From Escherichia phage EO1: a stretch of 64,000 bases of DNA. The stretch lies in sequence record OQ223305.1. One strand, written 5' to 3'. Under the pieces are notes generated by a model. That model made no database searches. It was given only the letters and a program-made list of their open reading frames with translations, and was not told where the DNA came from. Shown one piece after another: positions 2,449 through 39,810 of the stretch. Every line of letters starts with the position of its first letter. Position 1 is the first letter of the stretch. Position numbers and translations under genes: made by a program.

Positions 2449-2967
2449 ATGCCACATTTCAACGAATGTAGTCAACTGATCGAAGGCGCTGATAAAGCTC
2501 AAAATGAATATTGGGATATTCTCGGTGATGAAAAAGACCCGCTGCAGGTAATGCTTGACATGCAGAAATCTCTGCAAATTCGTTTAGCTAAAGATAAACC
2601 TGAATATAATCGTCATCCTGATGACTTGGCTACTGCCGGTGAAGTTGTTGATTGGTTGCGTAATCAGAAAGATTATATTGACGATGAATTCCGTGAACTT
2701 CTGACTTCTCTTGGTGGTATGAGTAATGGTGAAAAAGACGCATCTGCTGTATGGAAACCTTGGAAGTCGCAGCATGGTGAGCGTCGTGAAACTCTGATTA
2801 CTGATTTGTCTCCGCAAGACCAGTTAGAAATTAAATTTGAAATGATTGATATTCTTCATTTCGTTCTGAATATGTTCCAGGGTCTTGGTCTTACAGCTGA
2901 AGAAATCTTTAAACTTTATTACCTGAAAAATGCTGAAAATTTCGCACGTCAGGACCGAGGTTATTAA
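2449..2967 (+). CDS. 56: dCTP pyrophosphatase (dCTPase) gp56, MazG-like
   Basis: 172 aa; MazG-like acidic motif DDEFRELL; C-terminus YYLKNAENFARQDRGY recognised as T4 gp56. Confidence 0.85.
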   Translation: MPHFNECSQLIEGADKAQNEYWDILGDEKDPLQVMLDMQKSLQIRLAKDKPEYNRHPDDLATAGEVVDWLRNQKDYIDDEFRELLTSLGGMSNGEKDASAVWKPWKSQHGERRETLITDLSPQDQLEIKFEMIDILHFVLNMFQGLGLTAEEIFKLYYLKNAENFARQDRGY

Positions 2968-3107
2968 TGTCTCGTTTAAATAAACGTCAACTCAAAAAGT
3001 TGAATAAGAAAAGGGCGAAAGCCCTTACTGCTTTATTACGTAATGAAATAACTAAAGAAATAGACCAAGAGATTATTGAACAACTCTGGAAAGCCGCTAA
3101 ATTGTAA
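2967..3107 (+). CDS. small basic hypothetical protein, 46 aa
   Basis: hand-translated MSRLNKRQLKKLNKKRAKAL...; TAATG overlap with gene 56 stop; below track cutoff. Confidence 0.35.
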   Translation: MSRLNKRQLKKLNKKRAKALTALLRNEITKEIDQEIIEQLWKAAKL

Positions 3108-3109
3108 GT

Positions 3110-3117
3110 TATAAATA
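3110..3117 (+). promoter_or_regulatory. T4 late promoter (TATAAATA) for soc
   Basis: exact TATAAATA about 32 nt upstream of soc ATG; Soc is a late capsid protein. Confidence 0.6.
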
Positions 3118-3148
3118 CACCTGTAATTAAACAATAAAGGAGTTTATT

Positions 3149-3385
3149 ATGGGTGGTTTCGTTAACATCAAGACCTTTACTCATCCAGCAGGTGAAGGCA
3201 AAGAAGTTAAAGGTATGGAAGTTTCTGTAGCATTTGATGTATATTCAAATGAACACCGTATTGCAGATTCTCATTATCAAATCTTTCCGTCAGAAAAAGC
3301 AGCTTATTCTGATGTAGTTTCCGATGCAGCAACTTGGAAAACTAAGAATGCTGCAATGTTTACGCCTACAGAAATAGGTGGTTAA
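3149..3385 (+). CDS. soc: small outer capsid protein Soc (divergent from T4 Soc)
   Basis: 78 aa; VNIKTF, SVAF and HYQ.FPSEKAAYS segments shared with T4 Soc; AAGGAG RBS. Confidence 0.75.
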   Translation: MGGFVNIKTFTHPAGEGKEVKGMEVSVAFDVYSNEHRIADSHYQIFPSEKAAYSDVVSDAATWKTKNAAMFTPTEIGG

Positions 3386-3392
3386 TAATTCA

Positions 3393-3418
3393 AGGACTCC
3401 CTAGGGAGTCCTTTTTTC
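3393..3418 (+). terminator. rho-independent terminator
   Basis: hairpin AGGACTCCC-TAGG-GAGTCCT followed by TTTTTT. Confidence 0.75.
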
Positions 3419-3427
3419 ATTTTACCG

Positions 3428-3457
3428 GTTTACTTTCCAAAATGAGTATGGTATAAT
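3428..3457 (+). promoter_or_regulatory. T4-type early promoter
   Basis: GTTTAC 3428-3433, 18-bp spacer, TATAAT 3452-3457; ORF starts at 3484. Confidence 0.6.
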
Positions 3458-3483
3458 AAAATTATCTTATAGAGGAGAGCACT

Positions 3484-9790: not shown

Positions 9791-10025
9791 ATTAAGTTGG
9801 TATCAGTTTAAATCTCTTATGGCAAATGTTAAAGCTGTCATTGAAGAAAATCCGGGTCCTGAAAATATTACTATTCGCGAAAAAGCTTCAAAGATAGTAT
9901 ACAGTCTTGAAGAGATACAAAAAGACATTGAATCTATGGCAAAATTTATTGATGAGCCTATTAATAAAGTTTATATTCAAGACTATACTGTAGGTCAAAT
10001 TCGCGATTTAGCAAGGAAAATTTAA
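9783..10025 (+). CDS. hypothetical protein, 80 aa
   Basis: ORF in track; C-terminal IQDYTVGQIRDL resembles ISDYVLGEISHL of upstream ORF. Confidence 0.5.
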   Translation: MIELSWYQFKSLMANVKAVIEENPGPENITIREKASKIVYSLEEIQKDIESMAKFIDEPINKVYIQDYTVGQIRDLARKI

Positions 10026-10709
10026 TGTTTGATTTTATTATAGATTTTGAAACAATGGGAAGCGGCGAAAAGGCAGCTGTTATTGATTTAGCTGTAATTG
10101 CTTTTGACCCTAATCCAGAAGTCGTTGAAACATTCGATGAATTAGTTTCACGTGGCATTAAAATCAAATTTGATTTAAAAAGCCAAAAAGGACATCGTCT
10201 TTTTACTAAAAGCACTATCGAATGGTGGAAGAATCAATCCCCTGAAGCTCGAAAAAAATATTGCACCGTCAGATGAAGATGTAAGCACTATTGATGGTAT
10301 TGCAAAATTCAATGATTACATCAATGCGCATAATATAGATCCTTGGAAATCTCAGGGTTGGTGCCGTGGAATGTCGTTTGATTTTCCAATTTTAGTCGAT
10401 CTCATTCGTGATATTCAACGTTTTAATGGCGTTTCTGAGAATGAACTTGACACATTTAAGTTAGAACCATGTAAATTCTGGAATCAGCGTGATATTCGTA
10501 CCAGAATTGAAGCACTTCTGCTCGTTCGTGATATGACCACATGTCCTCTTCCAAAGGGAACTTTAGATGGATTTGTTGCACATGATTCTATTCATGACTG
10601 TGCGAAAGATATTCTGATGATGAAGTATGCTTTGCGATATGCTATGGGTCTTGAAGATCCTCCGTCAGAGGAAGAGTGCGATCCTCTATCTCTTCCAACA
10701 AAACGATAA
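10025..10709 (+). pseudogene. dexA: exonuclease A (dexA), DnaQ-like 3'-5' exonuclease, disrupted by +1 frameshift
   Basis: Exo I motif FDFIIDFETMG in ORF 10025-10276, Exo III motif HDSIHD in ORF 10371-10709; frames join across A7 run 10252-10258; one fewer A gives 227 codons. Confidence 0.8.
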
Positions 10710-11273: not shown

Positions 11274-11393
11274 TTATGAAATTTAATTATAATCCTGAAT
11301 ACACACCAAATCCGGTAGCTAAACTGATTGATTTTGATGTTGTAAAGCACTTATGTATGCCCTGTTAAACCACTGGAAATTAAGGAACCTACT

Positions 11394-11816
11394 ATGACTA
11401 CCGCCATTGAAATCGGCAAAACCTACAAACTGGTTGAAACTGAAATTAAAACTACTGAACTAAATTTGGGTTATAAAGCATTGACTAATGCTTTTGGTGA
11501 AGGCGAGTTTGTGGTTAAAAGCTTTTCAAAAAGTAACTGGTATGATAAGAATAAAGCTTACGTGATTCGAGTACGCCGTTTAGATAATGATGAAGTAATT
11601 AAAACTATAGTTTTTGAAGCAGAGTTCATCCTCTTTCAAGAATGCGATCCTACTGACCTTCTAACTCATGCGGTAGCTATCAAGACCCCATTTATTTCGG
11701 TTTGTGGTTGGGTAACAGACCAATGGATTGAAGATGGTGTTGAACTTCTGAACGTTGTTCATGCAGGTGATTTTAGCGTAGTACCTCGTAGTGCAGTGGT
11801 AGCTATTTTGAATTAA
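11394..11816 (+). CDS. hypothetical protein, 140 aa
   Basis: ORF in track; C-terminal GWVTDQWIEDGVELLNVV shared with next ORF. Confidence 0.55.
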   Translation: MTTAIEIGKTYKLVETEIKTTELNLGYKALTNAFGEGEFVVKSFSKSNWYDKNKAYVIRVRRLDNDEVIKTIVFEAEFILFQECDPTDLLTHAVAIKTPFISVCGWVTDQWIEDGVELLNVVHAGDFSVVPRSAVVAILN

Positions 11817-11892: not shown

Positions 11893-12390
11893 ATGATTAT
11901 TAATATTGGTGAAATTGCTCGTGTATCTGATAAATCCCGTTCTAAAGCAGCAGGAAAATTGGTCGAAATTGTAAGCATTCAGCTTAAACACGGCGTTAAA
12001 GATGAAGATTCTGAAGTAAAAGTGCGTATCATTCCTAAAGATGGAAAGTCTAAACCTCAGTTTGGTTATGTTCGATGGAAATTTCTTGAGCCTGCGTTTT
12101 TGAAAGCTGTTCCCGCTAAAGGAATTGAAACGATTGATACTTCGCATGTAGGTGTAGACTTTAAGTGGAAACTCGGTCAGGCTATTAAGTTCGTTGCTCC
12201 TTATGAATTCGAATTTACTGAAGATGAGGAAGGGGTTGTTCAAAAACACCGTACTCGCGCTATGTGTGCATACATTACTGATCAATGGGTAGAAGACGGT
12301 GTTAAGCTGTACAACGCGGTATTTTTAGGAACATACAAAGTCATTCCTGAAAGTTGGATTAAACACTACAGCAAAGCTCGCTGTGCATAA
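11893..12390 (+). CDS. hypothetical protein, 165 aa, paralog of 11394-11816
   Basis: ORF in track; C-terminal AYITDQWVEDGVKLYNAV. Confidence 0.55.
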   Translation: MIINIGEIARVSDKSRSKAAGKLVEIVSIQLKHGVKDEDSEVKVRIIPKDGKSKPQFGYVRWKFLEPAFLKAVPAKGIETIDTSHVGVDFKWKLGQAIKFVAPYEFEFTEDEEGVVQKHRTRAMCAYITDQWVEDGVKLYNAVFLGTYKVIPESWIKHYSKARCA

Positions 12391-12423
12391 AGTTTAAATT
12401 TTTTTTTTTCATAAAACTATATA

Positions 12424-38210: not shown

Positions 38211-38526
38211 TATTCGTCCGGTCGATGAGACCGGTCTTTCAGAAAAAGAACTTTCAATTAAGAAAGAAAAGGATGAAATAGCAAAGCTTCTTGATCGTCA
38301 AGAAAATGGATTTATTATTGAAAAGATGGTAGAAGAATTTGGAATGAGTTATCTTGAAGCTACGACAGCATTCTTGGAAGAAAACTCTATTCCTGAAACT
38401 CAATTTGCTAAATTTATTCCTTCGGGTATAATTGAAAAAATTCAGTCAGAAGCTATTGACGAAAATCTTTTACGTCCTTCTGTTGTTCGTTGTGAAAAAA
38501 CTAATACATTAGATTTTCTGCTATGA
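38188..38526 (+). CDS. 33: late-transcription coactivator gp33
   Basis: 112 aa from ATG 38188; between dsbA and 59. Confidence 0.75.
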   Translation: MTQFSLNDIRPVDETGLSEKELSIKKEKDEIAKLLDRQENGFIIEKMVEEFGMSYLEATTAFLEENSIPETQFAKFIPSGIIEKIQSEAIDENLLRPSVVRCEKTNTLDFLL

Positions 38527-39176
38527 TTAAACTCCGCATGCCTGCTGGTGGTGAAAGATATATTGATGGTAAATCAGTTTATAAATTATACTTAATGATA
38601 AAACAGCATATGAATGGAAAGTATGATGTTATTAAGTATAATTGGTGCATGCGGGTGTCTGATGCCGCTTATCAAAAGCGAAGGGATAAGTATTTTTTCC
38701 AGAAGTTATCAGAAAAATATAAATTAAAGGAACTTGCTTTAATCTTTATAAGTAATTTGGTTGCTAACCAAGATGCTTGGATTGGTGACATCTCTGACGC
38801 TGATGCACTTGTGTTTTATCGTGAATATATCGGACGCTTAAAGCAAATTAAATTTAAGTTTGAAGAAGATATTCGCAATATTTACTATTTTAGTAAAAAA
38901 GTTGAAGTTTCTGCTTTTAAAGAAATCTTTGAGTATAATCCAAAAGTTCAATCAAGTTATATTTTTAAACTACTTCAATCGAATATAATTTCGTTTGAGA
39001 CGTTTATCTTGCTTGATTCGTTTTTAAATATAATTGATAAACATGATGAACAGACTGATAATTTAGTCTGGAATAATTATTCTATAAAGTTAAAGGCTTA
39101 TAGAAAAATTTTAAATATTGATTCACAGAAAGCTAAAAATGTTTTCATTGAAACTGTGAAATCTTGTAAGTATTGA
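38523..39176 (+). CDS. 59: helicase loader gp59
   Basis: 217 aa, same length as T4 gp59; adjacent to gene 32 region. Confidence 0.8.
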   Translation: MIKLRMPAGGERYIDGKSVYKLYLMIKQHMNGKYDVIKYNWCMRVSDAAYQKRRDKYFFQKLSEKYKLKELALIFISNLVANQDAWIGDISDADALVFYREYIGRLKQIKFKFEEDIRNIYYFSKKVEVSAFKEIFEYNPKVQSSYIFKLLQSNIISFETFILLDSFLNIIDKHDEQTDNLVWNNYSIKLKAYRKILNIDSQKAKNVFIETVKSCKY

Positions 39177-39177
39177 T

Positions 39178-39810
39178 ATGAATATAGTATATTGGTTTAC
39201 ATTTGAAGACCGTGTCAAAAATAAGACTCCACCATACTACTATATCGGTAGTAAATTAAATTGCTCATTTGAGAACGGAATAATATATGACTCTTCCGGA
39301 AAGGAATACTGGAGCTCATGTAAACAAAAAAGATTTTTGAATGCGCTAATGCTTCAAAAACCGAGCGTTAAAATAATTCAAATTGATGATGACTTGGATG
39401 TTATTGAAGCAGAACGAAAATACCAACTTGAAGTAAATGCCAGAGATAATCCAGACTATTTTAATCTGGTATATGCTGGTGGTGGATTTGGTGTGAGTGG
39501 TGAAACTCATCCAGCCAAAGACCCGGAAGTTAGAGAGCATATGAGATTGGCTAATTATATGAACCGTGACGATTTTAGACCTTGGAAAACATCACGAGCT
39601 AATATAGAGTCTTGGAAATTATCTCATATTGCTTACGAGAATTATGTGTTATTATTATCCTCTAATCTGTACGGTAAAACTCCTGGATGGCGAAGAGTTA
39701 AAGGTAATATAAATATAACTGATACAACTGCTAAATCGATGGTAAAGTATTTCAACTCAGGTTGGATACCTCTCGAAGACCCAGAGTATTGCAAATTATG
39801 CCAGCTATGA
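39178..39810 (+). CDS. GIY-YIG family free-standing homing endonuclease (SegG-like by position)
   Basis: 210 aa; N-terminal IVYWFTFEDRVKNKTPPYYYIGSK (GIY...YIG-type); inserted between 59 and 32. Confidence 0.6.
   Translation: MNIVYWFTFEDRVKNKTPPYYYIGSKLNCSFENGIIYDSSGKEYWSSCKQKRFLNALMLQKPSVKIIQIDDDLDVIEAERKYQLEVNARDNPDYFNLVYAGGGFGVSGETHPAKDPEVREHMRLANYMNRDDFRPWKTSRANIESWKLSHIAYENYVLLLSSNLYGKTPGWRRVKGNINITDTTAKSMVKYFNSGWIPLEDPEYCKLCQL

Follow-up and report, generated by a model that had tools for sequence, protein, structure and literature searches.

Bacteriophage T4 encodes the exonuclease DexA (NP_049629; PDB 8KEL/8KEN; PF16473), which the phage needs only on optA1 hosts, in which dGTPase is overproduced; its other roles are in the scavenging of host DNA, mainly at 25 °C, and in intron homing (PMC12153337, PMC2993671, PMC2988022). 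The active-site residues of the enzyme are D7, E9, D119, H186 and D191 (the published legend prints E9 as E12), W152 and D169 contact 5hmC, and a mutant at S87 and D90 has been characterised (PMC12153337). Here we describe the same gene in Escherichia phage EO1, in the same genomic position and, once a single A is removed, of the same length. All five active-site residues of the T4 enzyme are encoded in EO1, but a shift of frame after codon 77 leaves no single open reading frame (ORF) for the domain.

The classical frameshift hot spots of T4 are runs of A in the rII and lysozyme genes, which are accounted for by the Streisinger slipped-strand model. The EO1 lesion is the same one-base addition in a run of A, but it affects a different gene and comes from the record of a natural isolate rather than from selection. 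The T-even contingency loci described by Gomez, Barrick & Waters (10.1101/2025.10.21.683753), namely T2 agt and the A6+1 form of T4 rIIA, offer a second parallel: like dexA, they involve ±1 changes in the A6 tract of a non-essential gene, and the A6-to-A7 change in EO1 dexA parallels their engineered T4 rIIA allele, Mut 123. For agt and rIIA both reversibility and a trade-off with host defence were demonstrated, whereas dexA is not known to have either; and the dexA variants in that preprint are rare reads, whereas the EO1 variant is the consensus of the isolate (10.1101/2025.10.21.683753).

The +1 frameshift of Escherichia coli prfB and the genes that depend on slippage (IS elements and Thermus dnaX) are also comparable, in that a slippery, repetitive tract lies between two frames of one protein. 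Unlike in those genes, the arrangement in EO1 is not conserved and has no Shine–Dalgarno element, A-site stop or RNA structure, and the tract is shorter than the sites of RNA-polymerase slippage. What is new here is the EO1 instance; the kind of event is well known, the tract has already been catalogued as prone to slippage, and there is nothing surprising in itself about a dispensable gene that is frameshifted in a homopolymer.

An A7 tract divides dexA into two reading frames

Phage EO1 has a genome of 166,941 bp and came from sewage, with E. coli O157:H7 ATCC 43890 as the isolation host (PMC10281158). We analysed a stretch of 64,000 nt from its sequence record (Tequatrovirus; OQ223305.1; raw reads, SRR24296758), which we refer to as the window. 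A sequence-only reading of this DNA had proposed that dexA is split by a +1 frameshift in a run of seven A's, and its description of the locus proved accurate: both ORFs and the run lie where it had placed them (Table 1), and the downstream frame, described as open back to the A run, stays open well beyond it in the upstream direction, to 10179. The upstream ORF translates as MFDFIIDFETMG...EARKKYCTVR*, in which Lys77 is the last in-frame residue and six further codons precede the stop. The run corresponds to nucleotides 228–233 of the intact 684-nt gene. As had been predicted, the removal of one A from the run yields a fused frame of 227 codons, the size of an intact DexA; this frame reads ...SPEARKNIAPSDEDV..., and the junction peptide of the full-length protein is ...EARKNIAPSDEDV....

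Table 1 Features of the dexA region of EO1 (positions in the window)
Feature	Position	Strand	Description
dexA.1 homologue, 80 aa	9783–10025	+	TAA stop overlaps the dexA ATG (TAATG); same synteny in T4
dexA 5′ ORF	10025–10276	+	DexA codons 1–77, then six codons read in the shifted frame (KYCTVR) and TGA
A7 homopolymer	10252–10258	+	Site of the single-base insertion; A6 in all relatives examined
dexA codons 78–227 and native stop	10257–10709	+	+1 frame; encodes D119, W152, D169, H186 and D191
Premature TGA stop in the shifted frame	10274–10276	+	
112-aa ORF	10371–10709	+	Starts at native Met116; contains HDSIHD
MotB-like gene (PF17613), conserved 179 aa	11276–11816		Split into 30-aa and 140-aa ORFs by an extra A

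The fused protein aligned with T4 DexA (PDB 8KEL_A, 227 aa) over residues 1–227 of both sequences (E = 9e-156), with 225 of 227 residues identical and the two differences being L133F and A212P; the two halves are collinear with the T4 protein from end to end, in agreement with the identity that the sequence-only reading had given the gene. The Pfam profile PF16473 (Rv2179c-like 3′–5′ exonuclease) scored 79.9 bits with the fused protein, against a cut-off of 27, and 49.3 bits (residues 4–81) with the N-terminal ORF alone; a Pfam profile search with the 112-aa C-terminal ORF alone returned no match. Gene order in EO1 runs from dda through two small ORFs, the dexA.1 homologue and dexA to a motB.2 homologue, and the order dda, dexA.2 and dexA.1 homologues, dexA, motB.2 is common to T4 and other relatives. 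At the DNA level, the alignment of dexA with T4, ECML-363, Ec_O157kw and a phage contig from GCA_016389475.1, all of which have A6, contained a single gap, and this gap fell inside the A run. On sequence grounds, an end-to-end match to DexA, together with one gap only, in the A run, is far beyond chance, and we identify the gene as dexA (exonuclease A), with a predicted DEDDh 3′–5′ exonuclease as its intact product.

In GenBank, the 112-aa ORF is labelled 'exonuclease' of phage EO1 (WDS52247.1, an exact match); inspection of the sequence revealed no recognisable Shine–Dalgarno sequence for this ORF. Another two proteins of the window agree exactly with EO1_43 and EO1_78. The 83-aa N-terminal fragment is absent from the protein collection and so was apparently never annotated. 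We suggest that the 112-aa 'exonuclease' of the EO1 record should instead be annotated as a dexA pseudogene or a frameshifted gene.

The catalytic residues are split between the fragments

All five catalytic residues of DexA are encoded in EO1 but are split across two frames. The first ORF holds D7 and E9 of Exo I, the sequence having E at position 9 rather than at the 'E12' printed in the legend of PMC12153337. The second holds D119 of Exo II and the H186-x4-D191 pair of Exo III, and the assignment of the Exo I motif to one ORF and of the Exo III motif to the other in the sequence-only reading therefore stands. The 83-aa product keeps D7 and E9 and is without D119, H186 and D191, as well as W152, D169, S87 and D90; the product of the 112-aa ORF is without D7 and E9. 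Because the 83-aa product (77 DexA residues followed by KYCTVR) retains only two of the five active-site residues, it is predicted to be incapable of acting as an exonuclease.

The A7 allele in relatives and sequence collections

In a megablast search with dexA, the best 60 matches all spanned 684 nt, compared with 685 nt for the EO1 query, as did 58 of 59 full-length matches that were sampled evenly down a ranking of 498. The sole exception among the sampled relatives was Escherichia phage ERS-1 (PP337211.1, an unannotated record), in which the dexA footprint (2793–3479) measures 687 nt, possibly owing to an in-frame insertion or several indels. When the truncated product was used as a tblastn query, none of 496 close phage records (at least 90% identity) extended into the KKYCTVR tail. 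IMG/VR, JGI metagenomes and GTDB genomes were scanned for the exact A7 pattern without a match; the A6 control pattern was recovered from 14 contigs (5 viral contigs in IMG/VR and 9 metagenome contigs) and from no GTDB genome. Finally, an exact look-up of eight predicted A7 or A5 truncated products, that of EO1 and seven others, returned none among around 15 billion proteins. Across these searches, the A7 allele is private to EO1.

Age of the lesion

We compared EO1 dexA with 15 intact dexA sequences and found six substitutions that are absent from all 15, every one of them downstream of the shift. Five of the six are synonymous in the dexA frame and one is non-synonymous; after the addition of 13 cluster proteins, no amino-acid state of the fused protein was unique to EO1. 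The downstream half of dexA is undamaged, with no sign of decay. Because these substitutions are mostly synonymous, whereas around 70% would be non-synonymous under the neutral expectation that we used, purifying selection must have acted on this half until a very recent date. The lesion is either young or an artefact.

Slippage is the probable origin of the frameshift

The sequence-only reading had left three options, namely true inactivation, a homopolymer sequencing error and a slippage-prone tract. We consider it probable that the first and third of these combine, and that EO1 carries a genuine, very recent slippage mutation that makes it a dexA-null, if leaky, phage; an error in the consensus is an appreciably weaker candidate. 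Inactivation by slippage is favoured because the sequence was determined at 514× on a platform (Illumina) that is not prone to homopolymer errors, the allele is private, dexA lies in a dispensable block, no essential gene in the window is broken and the tract has been recorded as prone to slippage.

The last of these points draws on populations of T-even phages, in which ±1 variants occur at most tracts of at least 6 nt in T2, T4 and T6, and in which the tract at nucleotides 228–233 of dexA is listed, in the supplement, as a hypermutable SSR for T4, T2 and T6 (10.1101/2025.10.21.683753). The dexA tract was found at 5 bp in 1 of 1,224 and 1 of 1,999 reads of T4 and at 7 bp in 3 of 1,294 reads of T6 (0 of 1,560 in another population), and variants were seen in 0 of 1,954 and 0 of 2,051 reads of T2 (10.1101/2025.10.21.683753). 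These counts, 0–3 per roughly 1,200–2,000 reads, are close to noise, yet they show that the A7 state occurs, and the earlier suggestion of a slippage-prone tract has its counterpart in the ±1 reads recorded for the same A6 tract of T4 and T6. In T4 rIIA, the reversion of an engineered A6-to-A7 allele was around 10,000-fold more frequent than that of a point mutant (10.1101/2025.10.21.683753). A T4 genome contains around 190 tracts of at least 6 nt, with a mean variant frequency of around 3e-4 (10.1101/2025.10.21.683753); we roughly infer that about one picked plaque in twenty would carry a slip somewhere, and that only slips in dispensable genes would survive.

In the mechanism that we propose, the conserved A6 tract would have been expanded to A7 by DNA-polymerase slippage (Streisinger-type slipped-strand mispairing) during phage replication, and the new allele would have been fixed through plaque purification or a natural bottleneck. 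Because a T4-like phage can do without dexA on ordinary hosts, the mutation would be tolerated. The gene lies in a block that T4 can lose, and the A7 allele would persist since the enzyme matters only in particular settings: on optA1 hosts, for the scavenging of host DNA at low temperature and for intron homing. The published propagation of EO1 used rich medium at 37 °C (PMC10281158), and loss of DexA would probably be cheap under these conditions. The phage would be functionally dexA-null or, at best, very leaky: if tRNA-Lys or RNA polymerase slipped by +1 on A7 from time to time, the exact wild-type DexA could be regenerated, probably as around 1% of products or fewer. Frequent reversion of the A7 allele to A6 would also be expected. 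Provided that the mutation is real, EO1 represents a ready-made, natural dexA-null T4-like phage, and a case from nature of slippage at tracts of at least 6 nt, which has been proposed as bet-hedging by phages (10.1101/2025.10.21.683753).

Sequence quality and other frameshifts in the window

The main competing explanation is that the real EO1 has A6 and an intact dexA, and that the extra A arose in assembly or consensus calling, or through the promotion of a minority variant. We judge this unlikely, although it keeps a substantial share of our doubt. Homopolymers are the classic place of indel errors, the A7 allele occurs in no other record and dexA is otherwise flawless; a private allele in a pristine gene fits a slippage mutation and a consensus error alike. 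The annotation is also sparse, with 139 ORFs for 167 kb (PMC10281158), suggesting limited curation. Against an artefact, EO1 was plaque-purified three times and sequenced by Illumina MiSeq (2 × 300) to 514×, with assembly in SPAdes (PMC10281158), and a majority-level indel error in a 7-mer would be unusual in such data. Random errors should, moreover, hit some essential genes. In a comparison of all 64 kb with Ec_O157kw, made at the DNA and protein levels, only dexA and one MotB-like gene changed frame, and no essential gene in the window was frameshifted relative to that phage.

The change in the MotB-like gene is a second single-A insertion, at 11344–11346 (GTAAGC to GTAAAGC), and lies 1.1 kb downstream of the dexA lesion. 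It too is private to EO1, around 320 relatives being without it, and two such insertions so close together could hint at a local problem of sequence quality. Against this, the second insertion stands in an A2 context rather than a homopolymer, and within a 39-codon N-terminal extension that tolerates frameshifts elsewhere: the same extension is frameshifted, by a T4-to-T3 change, in an unrelated metagenome contig (L012). A good ribosome-binding site (TAAGGAA) and an ATG at 11394 follow the insertion, and gene callers often report the 140-aa product only. This product may still be made despite the insertion, which may be nearly neutral. We considered the insertion as proof of poor assembly and found it ambiguous, given the frameshift in the unrelated contig and the internal ribosome-binding site and ATG.

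An intergenic T11 tract (12399–12409), just after the motB homologue (11893–12390), also differs from Ec_O157kw. We considered it as another private slip and rejected the idea, since relatives vary naturally in the length of this homopolymer, with footprints that range from 137 to 143 nt for the same 141-nt query, and since one phage, vB-Eco-KMB22, has the same length as EO1. This shared length makes the homopolymer lengths of the region look genuine and speaks against an artefact.

A two-base difference towards the 3′ end of frd (dihydrofolate reductase; 43417 in the window, 45034 in L006) separates EO1 from Ec_O157kw, and the ORF is 193 aa in EO1 and 204 aa in Ec_O157kw. Set against T4 frd, 193 aa looks like the usual length and Ec_O157kw like the variant.

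Throughout the window, we counted 39 A6 runs and a single run of seven or more A's, which is the dexA lesion. That homopolymers stop so sharply at six in this AT-rich sequence suggests selection against longer, unstable runs (of at least seven). Among T runs, there are 20 of T6, two of T7 (23791 and 49965) and one of T11.

Recoding and switching at the A tract

A different kind of explanation gives the tract a function, either in efficient +1 ribosomal or transcriptional slippage or as an A6 contingency locus of which EO1 is a selected OFF variant. We regard this as very improbable. With regard to recoding, which the sequence-only reading had not put forward explicitly, the slip site lies in the context CCCCUGAAGCUCGA AAA AAA UAU, in which the Lys tract A AAA AAA is slippery and permits tRNA-Lys re-pairing in +1, in itself weak evidence; a +1 slip here, or the omission of one A by RNA polymerase, would restore the exact wild-type protein, and the downstream half, with its five synonymous substitutions to one non-synonymous, is perfectly preserved. 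However, efficient transcriptional slippage usually uses around nine or more A's, and the run in EO1 has seven. Sequence inspection found no stimulators at A7, neither a Shine–Dalgarno-like element upstream nor an A site occupied by a stop or rare codon, and RNA folding of 10230–10340 was no better than that of shuffled controls (z = +0.67). None of the 496 close phage records has an arrangement that needs the shift, nor is A7 present in the three contig collections scanned. We rejected programmed recoding of dexA on these grounds: the arrangement is not conserved, and there are neither stimulators nor RNA structure. For the same reasons, and because the A run is too short, full-length DexA is expected from EO1 only at leak level, which we estimate at about 1% or less.

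Slighter again is the chance that the conserved A6 tract (around 500 Tequatrovirus records) is an ON/OFF contingency switch, with EO1 caught and selected in the OFF state and rapid reversion to A6 whenever DexA is needed. Tracts of at least 6 nt in T-even phages have been proposed as contingency loci, and ±1 reads were recorded at the dexA tract of T4 and T6 (10.1101/2025.10.21.683753). DexA cuts 5hmC phage DNA at 37 °C (PMC12153337), so the OFF state could plausibly be advantageous. Possible reasons for its selection would be this attack on the phage's own 5hmC DNA or sensing of DexA by a defence of the E. coli O157:H7 host, and if the switch were true, rapid reversion to A6 would be expected with dGTP-poor hosts, at low temperature or in intron homing. 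To our knowledge, no selective agent against DexA has been described. The ±1 counts, as noted above, are close to noise, and because none of the predicted A7 or A5 truncated products was found among around 15 billion proteins, fixed OFF alleles do not appear to be recurrent in nature; together with their absence from the 496 close records, this speaks against frequent use of such a switch. A genuine slippage mutation in a dispensable gene thus remains our preferred reading of the locus.

One further feature of the window touches on the role of DexA in homing. A gene for a GIY-YIG homing endonuclease (210 aa; 39178–39810) lies after ORF 38523–39176, which aligns with the homologue of gene 59 (helicase assembly protein) in Ec_O157kw, a phage without such an endonuclease gene at this place. 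RB5 and related phages encode an identical protein. Gene conversion initiated by homing endonucleases is normally helped by DexA, and EO1 pairs a homing endonuclease gene with a broken dexA.
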